Shown piece after piece: positions 18,029 through 27,487 of a stretch of DNA of 64,000 nucleotides (positions within the stretch are counted from its first letter, which is position 1; each line of letters opens with the position of its first letter). The notes under the pieces are model-generated. The model worked only from the letters and a program-made list of their open reading frames with translations. It did not search any database and was not told where the DNA came from. The translations under genes were made by a program, and so were the position numbers. Origin of the DNA: Eshraghiella crossota (lineage in GTDB: Bacteria; Bacillota; Clostridia; Christensenellales; CAG-917); contig CAVANK010000008.1 in NCBI GenBank assembly GCA_963590075.1, positions 390-64,389 of the forward strand, written 5' to 3'.

Positions 18029-19213
18029 TTAGTGGCAGCATTCGCAGTCGCAGCCGTATCTGAAATCGTGACCGAGTTTGTCCGCCGCTTTGATTGCCGC
18101 GATAACCATATCTTCGGTTACGGGGAAGGGCATATTGTGGATGCTCTCGTCGGGGATGCAAGTCTTTGCCGCAACGATCTTGTATTCTTCTTCGGTGAGT
18201 TCTTCTCTGATGACTTCGCCCGTGCGCGGATTGGTCATAAGGTCGTGCAAGCAGACGGGGAGACCTACTTCGTCGCAGAAGTTGAGAACTTCGTAAAGTT
18301 CTTCTTCGGGGCTGTTTTCGAGAACGAGTTGGCAAATCGTACCGAATGCGACTACTTCACCGTGCATACAGCAAGCGTGAATGTCGTGGACTGCGGTGAG
18401 ACCGTCGTGGATTGCGTGTGCAGCGGCAAGACCGCCGGATTCAAAGCCGAGACCGGAGAGAAGAATGTTGGTTTCGACAATCTTTTCAAGTGCGGGAGTT
18501 ACAACATTGCAGTCGCAAGCGACTTTTGCTTTTGCGCCGTCGCTGATAAGGTTGCGATAGCAAAGCTCTGCAAGTGCCGCAGCCGTGTAAGTGCCGTAGC
18601 CGAGCAACGTGCCTTTCTTGCGGTCTGCTCCGCAGGGGAGACCTGCGTTGACGTTGGATACGCTGTTGACGTTGGCTCTTGCCTCGAAGTATGTGGAAAG
18701 TGCGTCGCCCATACCGCTTACGAGGAAGCGAGATGGTGCGTTTGCGATGACGTTGAGGTCGATAAGAACTACGGACGGGCTTTGACGGAAGTATGCGTAA
18801 TCGTCAAACTCGTGATCGTCCGTGTAAAGAACCGCGGAGTGAGAGGTCGGTGCGTCCGTTGCCGCGATAGTGGGGCAGATGATGAGCGGATTGCCTGCCG
18901 CGACGCATTTTGAAGTGTCGATTGCTTTACCGCCGCCGAGACCGATCGTGCAATTGCATTTGTTTGCTTTTGCGAACTCTTGAAGTGCTTTTACAACCGT
19001 GCGCGAGCATTCACCCTTGAAGATGTCGCAAGTGACGAATTCTACACCGTATTTTGCTTGCGTTGCTTCGAGTTTCTCTTTGACGAGGTTGAGTGCAAAC
19101 GGATCTGCGATAAGGAGTGCTTTCTTACCGAATGTTTTGACAAAATAACCGAGGTTCAACAATTCGTTTTCGCCTTGTACATACTTTGTGGGACAAATAA
19201 ATGCTTTTCTCAT
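18029..19213 (-). CDS. gldA: Glycerol dehydrogenase (iron-containing alcohol dehydrogenase family)
   Basis: 394 aa. GGGKAIDTSK NAD motif and metal-binding His residues (HAIHDG...HGE). Upstream of the dihydroxyacetone kinase gene in the same orientation, giving a glycerol oxidation pair. Confidence 0.85.
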   Translation of the reverse strand: MRKAFICPTKYVQGENELLNLGYFVKTFGKKALLIADPFALNLVKEKLEATQAKYGVEFVTCDIFKGECSRTVVKALQEFAKANKCNCTIGLGGGKAIDTSKCVAAGNPLIICPTIAATDAPTSHSAVLYTDDHEFDDYAYFRQSPSVVLIDLNVIANAPSRFLVSGMGDALSTYFEARANVNSVSNVNAGLPCGADRKKGTLLGYGTYTAAALAELCYRNLISDGAKAKVACDCNVVTPALEKIVETNILLSGLGFESGGLAAAHAIHDGLTAVHDIHACCMHGEVVAFGTICQLVLENSPEEELYEVLNFCDEVGLPVCLHDLMTNPRTGEVIREELTEEEYKIVAAKTCIPDESIHNMPFPVTEDMVIAAIKAADKLGHDFRYGCDCECCH

Positions 19214-19467
19214 AAATTTTCTCCTTTAGAGGTGTTTTTTAAGATGTAAATATTATATATCCTAGCCGAAAATAATTCAATACCCAATTTGTTAAAAAAC
19301 GTGCATTTTTGAAAATTTTTTGCAAAAAATCGCGATTTTGAGGGGTTGCGGTCTCGATTTTCATAAAATTTTAATGTTTTTCGAGCAATTTATTCAAAAA
19401 AGTTGAATATTGAAAAAATCCGTATATAATAAAATCAATAAAGATCTTCATTGTCGAGGTGAATAAT

Positions 19468-20220
19468 ATGGACGTCGTATCATCAATCGAAAAACGCGTG
19501 CAATGGATACGCGATTTGCTTGCAAAAACAGGCGCAAAGGGCGTCATTTACGGCAACAGCGGCGGAAAGGATTGCACCCTCGTCGGAGCACTTTGCAAAC
19601 TTGCGACTCCCAACGTTTTGGGTGTCATTATGCCTTGCCAATCCTCGCAAAATTACGGTAGTGACCGCGACGACGCTTTGAGAGCGGGCGAGTATTTCGG
19701 CATCGAGCAAATCGAGATAGATTTGAGCGCAACCAAACAAGCGCTTCTCGACGCTTTCGGCGAGCAACTCACCAATGGCAACGCCGGTGAGAGCAATCTC
19801 AAAATGGCAAGCGTCAACATCAATCCGCGCCTTCGAATGACCACGCTTTACGCACTCGGTCAGGCAAGAGGATATCTCGTGGCGGGCACCGGCAACCTTG
19901 ACGAGGCAACGCTCGGATACTTCACCAAGTGGGGCGACGGCGCACACGATTTCAACCCGATTGCGGACTTGACCGTCGGTGAGATTTACGAGCATTTGAG
20001 ATACCTCGGCGCACCCGCAACCATCATCGCAAAAGCACCGTCCGCAGGTCTTTATCAAGGTCAAACCGACGAGCAAGAAATGGGCATCAAATACGCCGAC
20101 GTAGATAAATATCTACGTGGTGAAGATGTCCCCGCAGACGTGAGAGAGAAGATTGAGAGTGCTAAACGTAGAGCTGCGCATAAACTTCGTATGCCTCTCA
20201 AATTTGGCGAAAACGCCTGA
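19468..20220 (+). CDS. nadE: Ammonia-dependent NAD+ synthetase
   Basis: PP-loop SGGKDCT (SGGxDS-type). ATG 19468 is preferred because the GTG at 19459 sits inside the GAGGTG RBS. Confidence 0.85.
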   Translation: MDVVSSIEKRVQWIRDLLAKTGAKGVIYGNSGGKDCTLVGALCKLATPNVLGVIMPCQSSQNYGSDRDDALRAGEYFGIEQIEIDLSATKQALLDAFGEQLTNGNAGESNLKMASVNINPRLRMTTLYALGQARGYLVAGTGNLDEATLGYFTKWGDGAHDFNPIADLTVGEIYEHLRYLGAPATIIAKAPSAGLYQGQTDEQEMGIKYADVDKYLRGEDVPADVREKIESAKRRAAHKLRMPLKFGENA

Positions 20221-20235
20221 TTTGGCAAATAACTG

Positions 20236-20325
20236 CGTCAGAGCCGTCCGCCCGACAACTCATTTACGATTAGTAAATTAGGGTTGCCGTTCGGACGGCT
20301 CTTTCTTGTTCTTTATCCAAATCAG
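20236..20325 (+). repeat. About 90-nt repeated element, copy 1: 11-bp stem (20240..20250 / 20292..20302) around a conserved 41-nt loop, then a T-rich tail
   Basis: AGAGCCGTCCG ... CGGACGGCTCT encloses CAACTCATTTACGATTAGTAAATTAGGGTTGCCGT. Starts 16 nt after the nadE stop. A partial third copy of GTAAATTAGGGTTGCC is at 20372..20387. Confidence 0.7.
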
Positions 20326-21161
20326 ACGTTTTCGCATAGATTTGAGTTTGGAGAGGCTTATTAAAAATTTTGTAAATTAGGGTTGCCACCCAAACGGCGA
20401 ATAACTTTGGACGCGATTGACGTAGCGTAACAATCGCTATTCCGTCACTGCGTTCCTTACAGCACCCCGAGTTTTGCAAATCACGTACGTTTGTACGTTG
20501 GGTTTTGTTTCGGACGGGTGTTTATATGTTGTAGTCGTAACTCCTCTAAAAACAATACCCCCTCTTTCCGGACACGCCGGCATTTCTCGCCCCACTCGGT
20601 TAGGGACATTTCTCTACAAGAGTACCCGTCGCTCGCGGGGGAGACAACGGCACTCGCATAGATAGGGACATTTCTCTACTTGTGCCACTCGTTCGCCAAC
20701 GAAAAGAACAATACTCGTTGGCTCACTTGTACTACACCCACAAGGCTTCCACACACAAAGGACAAGTGAACGAAAGTGTGATATGTAAGATGAAAGCGTA
20801 GCCTTTTGTGTGAAGGAAAAAAGGAGCACCAAGGCAAAAAGCAAACAATTGGCACAAGTGACAATTGTGGCTAAAAGCCTTGTGTGTGACGCAAGCTCGG
20901 CACTTATCCGCTCGTCGCCTTGCGACTCGAACTCCGAATAAGCAAATTCCGTGTATAAGTACGCTTTGAATAAGTTTTCGTTAATTAGTCCGCTCTACAA
21001 GTTCGCGGACGGTGGTTTCTATTCCGTTTTCAAATAGGCACATTCCGTTAATAAGTGCGCCCCGAATGAGAGAGCGTTTAATTCCAAATTATCCTTTTTT
21101 ACCGAAAGTCGATATTATTCATATCAAAAATCGATAAATTTTTCTAAAATTCAATTTGTGC

Positions 21162-21190
21162 TTGCGACATTACTTAACATATGCTAATAT
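21162..21190 (+). promoter_or_regulatory. Candidate sigma-A promoter of the hydrogenase operon
   Basis: TTGCGA, 17 nt, TAATAT, 43 nt upstream of the hydC start. Confidence 0.4.
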
Positions 21191-21232
21191 ATATAAGGTT
21201 ATCATTTTATTCAACAAAGGAGGGGCTGAATT

Positions 21233-21715
21233 ATGGCTCATTTAAGTGAGGCGGCTGTTGCTCAAATCAACGCGATTTGCGACAGATACACCGATGAAAA
21301 AACCCCGCTTATGATGATTTTGAGCGATATTCAAAAGGAATACGGATATATTCCCATCGAAGTGCAAGAAATCGTCTCCGAAAGGACGGGGATCTCAGTT
21401 GCGGAAATTTACGGCGTCGTGACTTTCTACTCGTTTTTCTCGTTAGCACCCAAGGGGAAATACGTTATAGGCGTATGTCTCGGCACGGCTTGCTACGTCA
21501 AGGGCGCACAACAAGTTATCGACAAGTTCTGCGAAGTGCTCGGCATCAAGCCCGGTGAAACCACCAAAGACGGTTTGTTTACTATCGACGCATTGCGTTG
21601 TATAGGCGCTTGCGGTATTGCTCCCGCCGTTTCCATCAACGGTCAAGTTTACCCCAAAGTCGCAGTCAATGCCATCCCCGGCATTGTTGACAGTTATAAG
21701 TCGAGGGAGGAATGA
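21233..21715 (+). CDS. hydC: [FeFe] hydrogenase NuoE-like [2Fe-2S] subunit (HydC/HndA type)
   Basis: 160 aa. Thioredoxin-like [2Fe-2S] ferredoxin Cys pattern (CLGTACYVKG...CIGACGIAP). AAAGGAGG RBS. Confidence 0.85.
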   Translation: MAHLSEAAVAQINAICDRYTDEKTPLMMILSDIQKEYGYIPIEVQEIVSERTGISVAEIYGVVTFYSFFSLAPKGKYVIGVCLGTACYVKGAQQVIDKFCEVLGIKPGETTKDGLFTIDALRCIGACGIAPAVSINGQVYPKVAVNAIPGIVDSYKSREE

Positions 21716-21720
21716 TTGAG

Positions 21721-23604
21721 ATGATTAGAACTTTTGAAGAACTTGAAAGAACTTGCAACGATTGCTCCAAATGTATGGACGCAAAATTTACCGGTCACGA
21801 CGGCAAACGTCACATCGTACTTTGCGGTGGTACGGGCTGTCTTTCTTCCCATTCGGACGAAATCAGAGAAGAGTTTGTAAAGCTTGTCAATGAAAGAGGC
21901 TTGCAAGACAAAGTCACCGTCAACCAAGTGGGTTGCTTCGGCTTTTGCTCGCAAGGTCCTTTCGTCAAAATTTATCCCGAAGACACTCTTTATAGAATGG
22001 TCAAAATCGACGACGTGAGAGAAATCGTCGAAAAAGACATCGAAAACGGCGAAGTAGTGGAAAGACTTCTTTACGTCGATCCCGTCACCAAAGAAAAAGT
22101 TTCAAAACAAGACGATATCACTTTCTACAAAAAACAAGTGCGTATCGCATTGCACGGTTGCGGAAGCATCAACCCCGAAAAGATCGAAGAAGCACTCGGT
22201 GCGGGCGCGTTCAAAGGTCTCGCACGCGCGCTTCAAATGGACAGACAAGAAGTCATCAACGAGATTTTGGCTTCCGGACTCAGAGGTCGTGGCGGCGGTG
22301 GTTTCCCGACGGGCAGAAAATGGCAGTTTGCTTACGCTCAGCCCGACGGTGACAAATACGTCGTTTGCAATGGCGACGAAGGCGATCCGGGCGCGTTTAT
22401 GGATCGTTCCATACTCGAAGGAAATCCTCTTGCGGTCATCGAAGGTATGATGATTGCAGGTTACGCAATCGGCGCACAAAACGGTTATTTCTACGTGCGT
22501 GCGGAATATCCTATCGCCGTGCATCGTTTGCGCATAGCAATCCGTCAAGCGGAAGAAGCGGGCTTGCTCGGCGACAACATTCTCGGGACGAACTTCTCGT
22601 TCCGCGTACATATCCGCCTCGGTGCGGGCGCATTCGTTTGCGGTGAAGAGACGGCTCTTCTCAACTCCATCGAAGGACAAAGAGGTATGCCTCGTCCTCG
22701 TCCGCCGTTCCCCGCAGTCAAGGGATTGTGGCAATCACCGACCATCGTCAACAACGTCGAAACGCTTGCTTGCGTGCCTTACATTATGAGAGAAGGCTTT
22801 GAACAATTCACCAAATTCGGCACTGAAAAATCCAAGGGCACGAAGGTTTTTGCTCTCGGCGGAAAGGTCAACAACGTAGGTCTCGTGGAAGTGCCTATGG
22901 GTACTACTTTGCGCGAGCTCATTTACGACATCGGCGGTGGAATTCCAAACGGCAAGAAATTCAAAGCAATTCAAACGGGCGGTCCTTCGGGCGGATGCCT
23001 CACGGCTGACGACCTCGACGCACTCATCGACTTTGACAACCTCATTGCAAAAGGCTCGATGATGGGCTCGGGCGGTGCTATCGTTATGGACGAAGACAAC
23101 TGTATGGTTGACGTCGCAAAGTTCTATATGGAATTCATTTGCGACGAATCTTGCGGAAAATGTTCTCCTTGCCGTATAGGTACTAAGAGAATGCTCGAAC
23201 TTCTCACCAAGATAACCAAAGGTCAAGCCACTATGGAAGACCTTGACAAGCTCATCGACCTTGCAGGCAACATAAAAACCAACTCCCTTTGCGCCTTGGG
23301 ACAGACCGCTCCCAACCCCATACTTTCCACGCTTGCGCACTTCAAAGATGAATATATCGCGCACATCGTGGATAAAAAGTGTCCGGCGGCAGTGTGCAAG
23401 AGCCTTATGAACTACACGATTATTGCGGACAAGTGCGTAGGTTGCGGACTTTGCGAAAGGAATTGCCCCACCAACGCAATTCACAGCACCAACTATATCG
23501 CGCCCAATCACAAACTCCCGTCCAGAAAAATCGACACGGAAAAGTGCATCAAGTGCGGTATGTGTATGTCTTCGTGCAGACTCAAAGCAATCGAGAAAAA
23601 GTAA
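21721..23604 (+). CDS. hydB: [FeFe] hydrogenase NuoF-like NAD(P)H/FMN subunit (HydB/HndC type)
   Basis: GGGGFPTG FMN/NADH region, a SLBB-like part, the CGKCSPCR 4Fe-4S motif and two C-terminal ferredoxin CxxCxxCxxxCP motifs. ATG 21721 (10 nt after GGAGG) is preferred over ATG 21712, which overlaps the hydC stop. Confidence 0.85.
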   Translation: MIRTFEELERTCNDCSKCMDAKFTGHDGKRHIVLCGGTGCLSSHSDEIREEFVKLVNERGLQDKVTVNQVGCFGFCSQGPFVKIYPEDTLYRMVKIDDVREIVEKDIENGEVVERLLYVDPVTKEKVSKQDDITFYKKQVRIALHGCGSINPEKIEEALGAGAFKGLARALQMDRQEVINEILASGLRGRGGGGFPTGRKWQFAYAQPDGDKYVVCNGDEGDPGAFMDRSILEGNPLAVIEGMMIAGYAIGAQNGYFYVRAEYPIAVHRLRIAIRQAEEAGLLGDNILGTNFSFRVHIRLGAGAFVCGEETALLNSIEGQRGMPRPRPPFPAVKGLWQSPTIVNNVETLACVPYIMREGFEQFTKFGTEKSKGTKVFALGGKVNNVGLVEVPMGTTLRELIYDIGGGIPNGKKFKAIQTGGPSGGCLTADDLDALIDFDNLIAKGSMMGSGGAIVMDEDNCMVDVAKFYMEFICDESCGKCSPCRIGTKRMLELLTKITKGQATMEDLDKLIDLAGNIKTNSLCALGQTAPNPILSTLAHFKDEYIAHIVDKKCPAAVCKSLMNYTIIADKCVGCGLCERNCPTNAIHSTNYIAPNHKLPSRKIDTEKCIKCGMCMSSCRLKAIEKK

Positions 23605-23619
23605 AGAGAGGGAATTATT

Positions 23620-25386
23620 ATGGCTAAAATAAATATCAAAATAGAAGGCGTCCCTTATCAAGTCGAACAAGGCTTGACTATCCTTGAAGCGGCAAAGGCT
23701 TGCGGTTACGAAATTCCGTCCCTTTGCGCGTACAATCACGGTGAATGTTCAAGAGGCTCTTGCAGAGTATGTCTCGTCGAGGCTACCGGTGCAAGAGGTC
23801 TCGTGGCGTCTTGCGTGTACCCCGTCGCAGAGGGTATGGAAATCACAATATCTTCCCCCAAAGCGGTGCAAGCAAGAAGATCTTCTGTGGAACTTTTGCT
23901 TTCCAACCACAACCGCAACTGCCAAGAGTGCGACAAGAACGGCAAGTGTGAACTCTTGCACGTAGCCGTCCTCACGGGCGCAAGAGAGGGCATTTATAGC
24001 GGTGAACAAACGCCCGTAACCGTGGATAAACTCACTCCGTCAATCAAGCGCGACACGAGCAAGTGCGTGCTTTGCGGTAGATGTATCGAAAGATGTAAAA
24101 ATGCGCACGGTTTGTCCGTCCTCGGCTTTGAAAAGAGAGGATTCAAGACTATCGTCGCACCGGCAGAGAATAGAAGTTTTGCCAATTCTCCGTGCATTTT
24201 GTGCGGTCAATGCGTAAGCGTTTGCCCCACTGGCGCACTTATGGAAGTGAGCGAAATCGACAAGGTCGACGCCGCGTTCAAAGCGGGCAAATACGTCGTG
24301 GTGCAAGCCGCGCCTGCCGTAAGAGCGGCACTCGGTGAAGAGTTCGGTATGCCTATCGGCTCGCTCGTAACCGGCAAAATGGTCGCCGCGCTTCGTCGTC
24401 TCGGCTTCAAAAAAGTGTTCGACACCAATTTCGGCGCTGACCTCACCATTATGGAAGAGGCAACCGAGCTTCTCGGCAGAGTTAAAGACGGCGGTGTGTT
24501 GCCGATGATTACGTCTTGCTCGCCCGGTTGGATCAACTACGCGGAGTATTACTACGGAGATTTGTTAAATCACCTTTCTTCTTGCAAATCGCCTCACGAA
24601 ATGTTCGGCGCAATCCTCAAAACTTATTATGCGGAACAAAACGGCATCAATCCCGAGGACATGTACGTCGTATCCGTTATGCCTTGCACCGCAAAGAAAT
24701 TCGAGAAAGAGAGGAAAGAACTTTCCACCAACGGTCTCAAAGACGTCGACGCGGTTCTAACTACGAGAGAGCTTGCCAAGATGATCAAGCGCGCGGGCAT
24801 TATGTTCAACAGACTTCCCGACGAGGATTTTGACAACGATATCGTCGGTGAATACACGGGCGCGGGCGTCATCTTCGGCGCAACGGGCGGTGTTATGGAA
24901 GCGGCTCTTCGTACGGCGGTGGCAGTGCTCGACGGCAAAGAACTCGAACACGTCGAACTCACCGAGGTTAGAGGTCTCGAAGGCATCAAAGAAGCGTCCT
25001 ACAACCTCGGCGGTATGGAGGTCAAAGTTGCGGTCGCTCACGGCATGAAGAACGCCAAAGTCCTCCTAGACCAAATCAGAGAAGGCAAGAGCCCGTATCA
25101 CTTCATCGAGATTATGGGTTGCCCCGGCGGATGCGTCGCGGGTGGCGGACAACCTTACGTCAAACCTTGCTTCCTTCCCAACGAGGATGCCGATATTCTC
25201 GATACTTTCCGCGCAAAACGTGCCTCCGCACTTTACCGTGAAGACGAGGGTAAAACCGTTCGTGTCTCCCATAAGAATGCCCAAGTCCAAAAACTCTACG
25301 ACGAGTTTCTCGGCGAGCCGAATAGCCATCTTGCGCATGAGTTGTTACACACTCATTATACCTCCCGCACCCGTTTCCCGAAGTAA
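23620..25386 (+). CDS. hydA: [FeFe] hydrogenase catalytic subunit, trimeric/bifurcating-type domain layout
   Basis: N-terminal 2Fe-2S domain, His-ligated and two ferredoxin-type clusters, then the H-domain with L2 MPCTAKKFE and L3 EIMGCPGGCVAGGGQP. L1 reads TSCSPGW (see findings). Confidence 0.85.
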   Translation: MAKINIKIEGVPYQVEQGLTILEAAKACGYEIPSLCAYNHGECSRGSCRVCLVEATGARGLVASCVYPVAEGMEITISSPKAVQARRSSVELLLSNHNRNCQECDKNGKCELLHVAVLTGAREGIYSGEQTPVTVDKLTPSIKRDTSKCVLCGRCIERCKNAHGLSVLGFEKRGFKTIVAPAENRSFANSPCILCGQCVSVCPTGALMEVSEIDKVDAAFKAGKYVVVQAAPAVRAALGEEFGMPIGSLVTGKMVAALRRLGFKKVFDTNFGADLTIMEEATELLGRVKDGGVLPMITSCSPGWINYAEYYYGDLLNHLSSCKSPHEMFGAILKTYYAEQNGINPEDMYVVSVMPCTAKKFEKERKELSTNGLKDVDAVLTTRELAKMIKRAGIMFNRLPDEDFDNDIVGEYTGAGVIFGATGGVMEAALRTAVAVLDGKELEHVELTEVRGLEGIKEASYNLGGMEVKVAVAHGMKNAKVLLDQIREGKSPYHFIEIMGCPGGCVAGGGQPYVKPCFLPNEDADILDTFRAKRASALYREDEGKTVRVSHKNAQVQKLYDEFLGEPNSHLAHELLHTHYTSRTRFPK

Positions 25387-25412
25387 AAACCGCGCTATTT
25401 AGCGAATAGCAT

Positions 25413-25500
25413 TGTTAAAGCCCCTTGTCCGTCAACTCATTTACGTTTAGTAAATTAGGGTTGCCGTGCAAGGGGCTTTTCCTTGCTCTTCATCTAAATA
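25413..25500 (+). repeat. About 90-nt repeated element, copy 2: 11-bp stem (25417..25427 / 25469..25479) around the same conserved loop
   Basis: AAAGCCCCTTG ... CAAGGGGCTTT encloses CAACTCATTTACGTTTAGTAAATTAGGGTTGCCGT. Starts about 27 nt after the hydA stop. The T-rich tail (TTCCTTGCTCTTCATCTAAAT) is also similar to copy 1. Confidence 0.7.
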
Positions 25501-25804
25501 TCGCAGTTTTTCAAACGCGGTATGCATCAATTATTAATTATTAATAATAAATCATATTGCTAAAAATATAATTCATTTTGAAAATGGACGATATTTTGCG
25601 GTTTTTGATGTAAAATGCGGGGCGGAATGAGCAAAATTAAGGTTGGTTTTTGTTAAATCAGTTGTTTGGATGAATCGATATAAGTGTTGTTTTGTGGTTT
25701 ATACTCGTTTTGTACTTGGCAATACAGTTCATAGTTGCCAATAAAAAGGTGCAAATACGTAGTCGGAATACAAAATCGAGAAATGCTTATAAAATCTATA
25801 TAAC

Positions 25805-25845
25805 AAAAAAAACGGATGGCATTTTTAGATTGCTATCCGTTTTTA
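25805..25845. terminator. Orphan bidirectional terminator-like hairpin
   Basis: A8, stem AACGGATGGCA/TGCTATCCGTT (11 bp with one G-U pair), then T5. No credible CDS within about 400 nt on either side. Confidence 0.5.
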
Positions 25846-26041
25846 CTCTTGCTTTTTAATTAGTCTTGCGCGCGCACTTGTATCAAAGACTACGGCACGT
25901 CTAATCGTCAAATGGGGAAAATTAGGTGGAATCGAGTTATTTACAGTGCCTATTTTTTAACGCATTTTAGAGAAGATTTTGTTGTGCGGTTTGATGTGAT
26001 TGTATGGTTTATGTTGGGTTGATTTTTTATATTTTGTTGAA

Positions 26042-26103
26042 AGGCGTATGCTTGTCTCGGCGAGCGTAGCGAGCCGACTTGTTAAAAAGACAAGCATACG
26101 CCT
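26042..26103 (-). terminator. Long composite hairpin downstream of the ATPase gene
   Basis: Perfect 15-bp arms AGGCGTATGCTTGTC / GACAAGCATACGCCT enclosing an inner TCGGC/GCCGA stem. Lies 32 nt after the minus-strand stop at 26135. Only a weak U-run. Confidence 0.45.
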
Positions 26104-26134
26104 AAGTGTTACAAGGGATAGTTGAGTATGAAAA

Positions 26135-27487
26135 TCAAAGCAACATCGTCATATAAATGGGCAGATATGTTATGCCCGATTCTTCTTTATAATCTGAAGT
26201 GTGAATCACATATGGCATTGCGGTTTGTTCCTCATATTTCGTGCAGAACTTTTGCAAGGAATTGATCGTGTAATTCTTGCCCGATTTGACTTCTATAGGG
26301 GATATGTTGTGTCTGTTGGTGACTTTGCTTTTTGCAATCAAAAAATCTATCTCCATTCTCGATGCAGAATCGTTTTGCGATGCGCTTGAATAGAAATATA
26401 ATTTATGACTAGACGCTACAAGCATTTGCGCAACGATGTTTTCCACAAGCATGCCTTTGTTCACTTCCAACTTGTCAAAAAGCAATTTCTTGTATATTTC
26501 TTCTTCGGCAATGCCTTTTTCGTCGAAAGCGTGGCTTATAAGCAATCCCGTGTCCGCCATATAGCATTTGAGCGTTGTTCTGTCCATATTCAGTTTCAGC
26601 CCTATGTTAGGCGCGGTTGAATTGTAACAGTTGTTGACTATCATTGCGTCATCAAGCCAGAACAAAGCGTCTTCGTATTCACGGAAGCGCGCTTCTTTTT
26701 TTATGGACGAAAGTTTAAACTTTTTCTCGTGTTTTTGCAGTTGCGACGGTATCTCGTCAAATATGCTTTGAACCTTAACCTTGTATCCTTCGGCGTGTTT
26801 GCCGATGTCATTTCTATACAAGGTCAAGATATCTCTTTTTACGGCATCTACCTCATTGAAATCCTTGGTGTTTACATATTTTTCAACCGCTTGCGGCATT
26901 CCGCCCACAATCATATATTGACGGAAATAATCCATTGCTTTTCGGTGGAGCGCCTGTCCCATTGGTTTTTTGTCGTTATAATTTTTGCGGATTAAATCCA
27001 TAAGCGTGTCGTTTCCCATTGCCCACAAAAACTCTTCAAAATCCATAGGATACATTTTTATGTGTCTCTCTTCGGATGGAATGACAATATTTTTGACATT
27101 CTTTTTTATGGAAACGAGCGAGCCTGTTTCGATATAATCGAATCTACCGTCCTCAACGAGATATTTTATAGCTGCGCGCGCTCGCGGAAACATTTGAACC
27201 TCGTCGAAAATAATCAACGATTCTCGCGGATATAGTTTGGTGTTGAAATATGCGCTCAAATACACAAAGAATGTGTCCAAATCGTTCAGATATGCGTCGA
27301 ATAAATTCTTGACGTCGTTTCCGACTTTGTTAAAATCAATGACTATATACGATTTGTAATATTCTTGTGCAAATTCTTCTGTAATATAACTTTTGCCGAC
27401 ACGTCTTGCGCCGTCGATTAAAAGGGCGGTTTGCCCGTTTGAAGATTGCTTCCATTCAATCATTTTATCAAAGATTTTGCGTTTCAT
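26135..27487 (-). CDS. AAA+ ATPase with C-terminal PD-(D/E)xK-like domain (AAA_14 + DUF4143 architecture)
   Basis: Walker A GARRVGKSY, Walker B LIIFDEVQ, and a C-terminal EIDFLI...PIEVKSGK motif. ATG 27487 (GGGAG RBS) is preferred over the GTG at 27493. Confidence 0.8.
   Translation of the reverse strand: MKRKIFDKMIEWKQSSNGQTALLIDGARRVGKSYITEEFAQEYYKSYIVIDFNKVGNDVKNLFDAYLNDLDTFFVYLSAYFNTKLYPRESLIIFDEVQMFPRARAAIKYLVEDGRFDYIETGSLVSIKKNVKNIVIPSEERHIKMYPMDFEEFLWAMGNDTLMDLIRKNYNDKKPMGQALHRKAMDYFRQYMIVGGMPQAVEKYVNTKDFNEVDAVKRDILTLYRNDIGKHAEGYKVKVQSIFDEIPSQLQKHEKKFKLSSIKKEARFREYEDALFWLDDAMIVNNCYNSTAPNIGLKLNMDRTTLKCYMADTGLLISHAFDEKGIAEEEIYKKLLFDKLEVNKGMLVENIVAQMLVASSHKLYFYSSASQNDSASRMEIDFLIAKSKVTNRHNISPIEVKSGKNYTINSLQKFCTKYEEQTAMPYVIHTSDYKEESGITYLPIYMTMLL

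Follow-up and report, generated by a model that had tools for sequence, protein, structure and literature searches.

The window analysed here, a stretch of 64,000 nucleotides from contig CAVANK010000008.1 of assembly GCA_963590075.1 (the source genome; 1.68 Mb in 56 contigs), carries two full copies of a hairpin repeat on its forward strand, each at the end of a protein-coding gene. The upstream copy (copy 1) closes an ORF at 19459-20220 that we take to be nadE, encoding an NAD synthetase-like protein. The downstream copy (copy 2) closes hydA, the last of three co-oriented genes at 21233-25386 (160, 630 and 588 aa), an order that, judged from the arrangement, is presumably that typical of a trimeric NuoE/NuoF-type [FeFe] hydrogenase. 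The original prediction had placed a repeated, structured element of about 90 nt at these sites; the repeat and its structure are there, but the element had been drawn too narrowly and in fact measures about 128 nt. The decayed remains of an older copy or copies lie a short distance downstream of copy 1. The features are as follows.

20207-20335, + strand: copy 1, the full hairpin repeat after nadE (RNA fold; covariance model, 143 bits)
20218-20220, + strand: nadE stop codon, TGA, within the outer stem of copy 1 (sequence; comparison with relatives)
20225-20233, + strand: left box of copy 1, GCAAATAAC, partner of the right box at 20308-20317 (60-copy alignment, columns 27-35 and 114-123)
20240-20302, + strand: inner hairpin of copy 1, a variable 11-bp stem with a conserved apical hairpin at 20256-20286 (alignment, fold)
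20303-20317, + strand: T-rich tract of copy 1, 3' of the inner hairpin
20372-20520, + strand: decayed older copy or copies, displaced downstream of copy 1 (partial covariance-model match, 28.9 bits)
20372-20389, + strand: apex fragment of the decayed copy
20390-20409, + strand: left-arm fragment of the decayed copy
20410-20461, + strand: foreign 52-nt module in the decayed copy
20462-20520, + strand: mismatched inner hairpin of the decayed copy
25384-25511, + strand: copy 2, the full hairpin repeat after hydA (ORF 23620-25386; RNA fold; covariance model, 139 bits)
25402-25410, + strand: left box of copy 2, GCGAATAGC, partner of the right box at 25485-25494 (alignment)
25417-25479, + strand: inner hairpin of copy 2, a variable stem with an apical hairpin at 25433-25463 (alignment, fold)
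25480-25494, + strand: T-rich tract of copy 2, 3' of the inner hairpin

Both copies fold into long hairpins over their full extent, with RNA minimum free energies of -63.4 kcal/mol for copy 1 (z -10.2) and -55.1 kcal/mol for copy 2 (z -9.2). They share, as had been noticed from the sequence, a conserved core, which amounts to 35 nt at 20256-20290 and 25433-25467 (0 expected by chance), and the 11-bp stems that enclose it are perfectly complementary in each copy although their sequences are unalike: AGAGCCGTCCG/CGGACGGCTCT in copy 1 (20240-20250/20292-20302) and AAAGCCCCTTG/CAAGGGGCTTT in copy 2 (25417-25427/25469-25479). The stretch between the stems had been described as a 41-nt loop; it is conserved, but is itself an apical hairpin of two helices. 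Likewise, the elements do occur at stop codons, but not, as had been thought, just past them: the stops lie inside the base of the hairpin rather than 5' of it. In copy 2, pairing begins with the hydA stop triplet itself (TAA, 25384-25386). At nadE, relatives encode a protein ending in ...KFGE followed by TAA, whereas that of the source genome ends in ...KFGENA followed by TGA; the ORF extends three codons into copy 1 because the usual TAA position reads GAA.

A core-only fragment reported at 20372-20387 is indeed present, and its 16-mer GTAAATTAGGGTTGCC has three exact occurrences against 0.05 expected. The decayed copy in which it lies is orthologous to an element that in a related genome, G010, has kept its place on the nadE stop codon. 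In the 52-nt module within the left internal loop of this decayed copy, a small GCGATTG...CAATCGC hairpin precedes GTCACTGCGTTCCTTACA. Genome-wide there are about 23 copies of the small hairpin; it also stands free in another relative, G056 (L256), and is found in the right internal loop of a copy on contig C13. A block reading ...TAAATGCAAyTTTCCCCCTTCCTCAyGGTGTTTyCCCTAT... or CCCCCTCTTTCCGGACACGCCGG recurs 3' of several gene ends, at 20558-20580 of the window, at C9:131, C23:11059 and C9:64353 of the source genome and also in relatives, and outside the window a further dispersed repeat, CAACTCACAAGTTCATTGTCTACTGCCACGCTAG, has 15 copies on both strands (G000 C1:28626, C2:77931, C10:46512 and 12 more sites).

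It is clear that the two copies are more than a lone duplication. Iterated nhmmer searches located the element at 85 places in the source genome, 66 of them full length and about 20 partial, and a covariance model built on 60 copies gave 88 matches there, some of which are the reverse strand of the same copies. Comparison with Rfam gave no family match at the elements at E values up to 10; a cmscan of window positions 19000-27000 returned three chance-level matches, all elsewhere. Aligned, the copies define an imperfect palindrome of about 128 nt that forms one continuous compound hairpin. Its outer stem, about 17 bp long and largely locus-specific, is A-rich on the left and T-rich on the right, and its first bases are the stop codon of the host gene. 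Above this, two conserved boxes (GCGAATAAC/GTTCTTCATC) pair across a fixed pyrimidine-pyrimidine mismatch that copy 1 also shows; next comes an asymmetric internal loop separating the boxes from the variable stem, which is GC-rich and about 11 bp long. The apical hairpin comprises CAACTC/GGGTTG, a 2-nt bulge, ATTTAC/GTAAAT and a 5-nt loop. Within it, little or no variation is seen in a T.G pair (columns 64/88), in the adjacent C-G pair or in the 2-nt bulge, and the apex as a whole has at least six variants that covary, among them ATTTAC/GTAAAT versus ACGTAC/GTACGT, the lower helix appearing as CAACTC/GGGTTG, CAAAATC/GGTTTTG or CCAGTC/GGCTG.

The association with stop codons holds throughout the family. 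In the source genome 55 of the 66 full copies lie directly 3' of an ORF on the same strand (at least 60 codons, ending -20 to +30 nt relative to the start of the model), and in 37 the stop is no more than 2 nt from the model start; the mirror-image, antisense control gave 11, scattered in position. Across about 15 other genomes, a same-strand ORF precedes 112 of 149 full copies, and its stop is within 2 nt in 76. The stop codon is base-paired in 109 of 112 minimum-energy folds, and on average the helix reaches 1.6 nt further, into the last sense codon, compared with 0.4 nt in a control. TAA serves as the stop in 76-82% of element-bearing genes versus 58% genome-wide, a figure based on crude gene calls. 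Secondary peaks in position at +9/10, +13/14 and +21 represent ORFs that read through to the next in-frame stop, and the left arm offers stops in all three frames. Ordinary terminators of the source genome (about 249 predicted) start some 15-45 nt 3' of the stop, with a mode of 20-24 nt, and only about 10% fall within 5 nt of it; the anchoring thus belongs to the element itself rather than to terminators in general. The host genes are core or housekeeping genes, often highly expressed, and include gdh, fba, gap, fusA, dnaN, pnp, hydA and rpmF, the products of which are glutamate dehydrogenase, fructose-bisphosphate aldolase, GAPDH, EF-G, DnaN, PNPase, L32 and two [FeFe] hydrogenases, together with FtsX-type permeases.

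Among the genomes searched, the family is confined to a narrow set of relatives, uncultured Clostridia of the human gut; at family level about 80 genomes have the element and 28 lack it. Model matches were obtained in 49 of 51 genomes of the genus, most with at least dozens of copies, and in 14 of 15, 12 of 12 and 2 of 3 genomes of sister genera, with single weak matches in two more; ten other genera of the family and 16 genomes from other families of the order gave no match. Public records containing the core are bins from the human gut that go under names such as uncultured Clostridiales, Christensenella sp. UBA and Firmicutes bacterium CAG:238. The same element also appears in bins labelled Phascolarctobacterium succinatutens or Anaeroplasmataceae (L148, L149, L160, L172 and others); the organism names attached to these bins look unreliable.

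Orthologous sites in relatives carry a range of structures. In low-copy species HydA ends in ...PRNRY and a plain terminator follows 20-90 nt further on, whereas in high-copy species it ends in ...RTRFP-X and the element begins at the TAA. At the same locus in G010 and G056, a new element occupies the TAA and the right half of the element found in the source genome and in G017 remains downstream; right-half remnants just 3' of full copies were seen at six loci of the source genome. The nadE stop codon is occupied by a plain terminator in G056 and by a collapsed element, reduced to left arm, inner stem, short loop and T-run, in G010; the element at nadE in G044 is collapsed too. In the source genome a new full copy stands 5' of the G010-type element, which is displaced and broken at 20372-20520. 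The collapsed derivatives at nadE in G010 (L255) and G044 (L257), and one elsewhere in the source genome (C24:8143-8183), resemble ordinary terminators, so that some plain terminators may descend from the repeat. Turnover appears to be slow: of 99 orthologue pairs, 63 have the stop of the same gene occupied by an element in both species, and joint occupancy rises to 77% where the C-terminal 90 residues are at least 90% identical, which argues for slow replacement rather than active hopping. A metagenome scan for strains of the same species at nadE yielded one close contig, which is G010-like, and no fresh insertion. In the nadE 3' flank of another species (L270, L272 and L273), one contig joins the alternative flanks of the other two with an extra right-half element between them, a mosaic showing that the elements act as points of inter-strain recombination.

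The covariation that first drew attention to the stems extends across the family. RNAalifold on the 60 copies predicts 44 pairs, of which 38 show double changes, and the stems are kept in the additional copies, with 94.7% of cells paired against 69% in column shuffles and 30-44% when the partner is slid. The complementarity of the hairpin is clearly maintained. The pattern of change, in contrast to the original prediction, does not by itself argue for a selected RNA fold. Among cells that are not Watson-Crick, A.C and C.A (65) are no rarer than G.U and U.G (43), and the antisense strands fold equally well or better, at -74 kcal/mol for copy 1 and -57.5 kcal/mol for copy 2. At 62 orthologous loci the inner (mid) stem was replaced in 33 and the outermost stem in 39. 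In stems with few changes double changes outnumber single ones by 287 to 57, even where the ends of the host proteins are 96-100% identical, and they do so because the contiguous inner hairpin is swapped as a block: being one uninterrupted stretch of about 65 nt, it can have both arms altered together by a single conversion or template-switch tract. At hydA, for instance, the source genome and G017 share the same outer stem around different inner hairpins. Conversely, copies in the source genome whose interiors are 95-98% identical have outermost stems that are unrelated to each other, yet self-complementary. The palindromes grow outward in situ, as is seen at single loci and on average; at hydA in G019 the far side holds a 10-nt inverted copy of the host codons TTTCCCCAAC, whereas its sister G047 has only 3 nt. 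The parity of A.C with G.U, the symmetry of the strands and the exchange in blocks together mean that the covariation is no proof of a selected RNA fold, and the observed pattern is what would be expected from templating at the level of DNA. That block exchange and templated palindrome growth can produce perfect-looking covariation is a warning for covariation-based RNA discovery.

The best explanation, to which we give slightly better than even odds (about 0.55), is that the element is a portable hairpin repeat of terminator type that is copied and reshuffled at the DNA level. As judged from its sequence, it is most likely the intrinsic terminator of the host gene and, at the same time, a hairpin that would protect the 3' end of the transcript. 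The element has the layout of an intrinsic terminator, in which a U-tract comes directly after a GC-rich hairpin on the transcribed strand: the 10 nt 3' of the inner hairpin have a T fraction of 0.56 in the sense direction and 0.19 in the antisense equivalent, with the sense pattern T(108)TTC..GTT.T. The base of the outer stem shows no such asymmetry, at 0.42 on both sides (an A-run facing a T-run), and a second T-run closes the whole hairpin. It is this sense-only U-tract after the inner hairpin, with the terminal T-run, that makes a terminator the most likely role, and a terminator acting on the sense strand is the most economical account of the sense orientation, the plain terminators at the same sites in relatives and the terminator-like form of the collapsed derivatives. 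Against it, the U-tract is imperfect, reading UUUCUUGUUCUU or UUUCGCGUUAUG; a simple terminator scan, of a kind not built for compound hairpins, did not call the element. The invariant T.G pair, the 2-nt bulge and the box mismatch exceed what a terminator needs and suggest a putative recognition site for a protein. As for the copying, fresh copies arise on the stop codon while older ones stay downstream and decay, the inner hairpin is traded between copies in one block, presumably through gene conversion or template switching, and the palindrome can extend outward as the last bases of the host gene are copied, inverted, onto the far side. DNA-level copying by itself accounts for neither the nucleotide-exact anchoring nor the 5:1 sense orientation. 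Candidate reasons for the anchoring are a function that requires the stop codon to be inside a helix, and a longer survival of those copies that became the stop codon of a gene. Insertion into the loops of existing terminators, which would account for the placement as well as for the locus-specific outer stems, was considered as a general model and rejected, given that ordinary terminators mostly lie some 15-45 nt past the stop and that the new hydA element of G010 and G056 carries its own outer stem. No donor with this outer stem was found in five genomes.

If the repeat is the terminator of its host genes, then the ends of genes can consist of exchangeable, mobile parts. Alternatively, the element could be a non-autonomous mobile element of MITE, REPIN or attC type, moved in trans by an enzyme that reads three features of the folded single-stranded DNA hairpin, namely the apical T.G pair, the 2-nt bulge and the mismatch in the boxes, with terminator activity either incidental or acquired later. 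Hairpins that act as single-strand recombination sites, among them attC, the ends of IS200/IS605 and REP sequences, typically contain bulged bases and fixed mismatches. The copies are many and turn over, with new ones at the stop codon and old ones displaced; the balanced counts of G.U and A.C are what is expected for DNA and not for RNA; a 133-nt unit bounded by GGATAAG...CTTATCC is common to two unrelated loci; and at two loci the old gene end and stop survive 139 and 301 nt downstream, so that some events evidently insert DNA a few bases upstream of the old stop. We nevertheless consider this reading unlikely. The source genome, which is 94% complete, contains no match to Y1/RAYT, RVT_1, TnpB or IS110, and RAYT, reverse transcriptase, TnpB and IS110 were accordingly set aside as mobilisers; PF01797 (Y1_Tnp) gave 0 matches there and did match control genomes. 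Within the genus Y1 is present in 12 of 52 genomes and is uncorrelated with copy number, being absent from the high-copy G001, G009, G010 and G012 and present in the low-copy G022-G024. Termini vary among copies, unlike terminal inverted repeats of the MITE type, for the outermost 10 bp differ and only the inner boxes are conserved. There is no general target-site duplication: duplication of TA or of 9 bp was rejected, the 9-mer ending in the stop recurring downstream in 12 of 167 copies compared with 8-14 for control 9-mers. In the source genome, an incomplete metagenome bin, no pair of left and right arms encloses a gene. Finally, the largely conserved occupancy of the same genes across species points away from active hopping. 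A small reverse-strand ORF starting from the CAT of the conserved right box was also rejected on inspection, as it lacks a ribosome-binding site and the stems vary regardless of codons; no promoter site was called within the element.

The placement itself invites a different reading, in which the hairpin is a selected cis-acting device of the mRNA 3' end whose function depends on having the stop codon in its base: the terminating ribosome would melt the outer stem and so couple translation termination to read-through, mRNA decay or stalling. Nucleotide-exact placement, sense orientation and the near-universal pairing of the stop codon fit such a device. The apical motif is invariant and strand-specific, and 12-15 nt separate the stop codon from the conserved box, which is about the length of mRNA that a ribosome covers downstream of its A site. 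E. coli REPs near stop codons provide a precedent for stalling, as described in PMC12306157. This account is nonetheless quite doubtful: G.U is not preferred over A.C, the antisense strand folds as well as the sense strand, stems are replaced as blocks instead of by stepwise compensation, and no Rfam family matched down to E = 10. A broader proposition, that the repeat either spreads by homing to translation stops or is kept up by a function needing the ribosome to open the base of the hairpin, is more of a long shot. Were it true, homing to stop sites would be a new mode of element targeting, and a ribosome-opened hairpin would be a new translation-coupled 3'-end device; either way, the apical motif of T.G pair plus bulge would be the handle for a protein. 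It is highly improbable that the repeat serves, within terminators, as a signal for species recognition or recombination, for example as a pair of DNA-uptake-type sequences. Its conserved core, its restriction to one lineage and its terminator-like hairpins would suit such a signal, as would the inter-strain recombination evident at element loci. However, the core occurs in its several covarying variants whereas uptake signals are invariant in sequence, to our knowledge none is known in Firmicutes, and the placement on stop codons would be left without explanation. The precedent is that of paired Neisseria uptake sequences that form terminators, as mentioned in PMC3049150. The portable, terminator-type repeat that is recopied and reshuffled as DNA is the interpretation we prefer to all of these.

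Dispersed bacterial palindromes (REP, ERIC, BOX, RUP, SPRITE) are common, their placement is usually loose and their function is debated. No description of the present family was found in a literature search, and it appears to be undescribed. What sets it apart is that, across a whole group of abundant uncultured human-gut bacteria, dozens of core genes (gdh, fba, gap, fusA, pnp and hydA among them) have a stop codon that the repeat either provides or encloses, and exact anchoring to stop codons by an element with no known transposase poses a clean mechanistic question.

Several known systems are instructive. In S. pneumoniae, SPRITE is a dispersed, terminator-like repeat at gene ends that has no known transposase (PMC3049150), and the likeness to the present family is one of kind, by description only: both are dispersed Firmicute repeats of about 100-130 nt with a long duplex followed by a U-rich tract and with A-run and T-run ends, both are enriched near the 3' ends of coding sequences with neither a known transposase nor a target-site duplication, and co-option as terminators has been proposed for both. 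SPRITE differs in that its roughly 30 copies are AT-rich, loosely folded and near rather than on gene ends, whereas the present family has a compound four-part hairpin with a conserved apex and covarying stems, exact anchoring and a strong sense bias. The attC sites of integrons are also imperfect palindromes with bulges, directly 3' of an ORF on its own strand, variable in sequence and conserved in structure; their AAC...GTT boxes have a counterpart here, some copies reading GCCTAAC, which fits RYYYAAC. Unlike attC sites, which occur in co-oriented cassette arrays, the present copies are spaced some 10 kb from one another behind housekeeping genes and point both ways along a single contig; their right box, GTTCTTC or GTTATGC, does not fit GTTRRRY, and extra stems lie outside the boxes. 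Intrinsic terminators, including bidirectional ones with A- and T-tracts, share the GC-rich hairpin and the sense U-rich tract and occupy the same sites in relatives, but ordinary terminators of the source genome have stems of 5-12 bp and unrelated sequences, whereas the element is a homologous 128-nt repeat. REPs and REPINs (PMC3116915, PMC8266576, PMC3733652) are likewise extragenic palindromes present in many copies. They fold into long hairpins, are passed on vertically within a lineage over long periods, show compensatory-looking changes and have roles in termination or mRNA stability. A single-copy RAYT is present in every genome with such a repeat population, whereas no RAYT accompanies the present family, and REPINs consist of two inverted REP units around a spacer and are not anchored to stop codons, whereas no sub-palindrome and no GTAG or CGTC tag is visible by eye in the present element. 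In E. coli, REPs closer than 16 nt to a stop cause ribosomes to stall and reduce translation, according to PMC12306157, which cites Liang, Rudd and Deutscher (2015). Here too a repeat hairpin lies near enough to the stop to meet the terminating ribosome, and by analogy an effect on translation may be envisaged; but PMC12306157 puts only 11% of E. coli REPs that close, at variable distances, whereas about two thirds of the full copies of the present family contain the stop codon itself.
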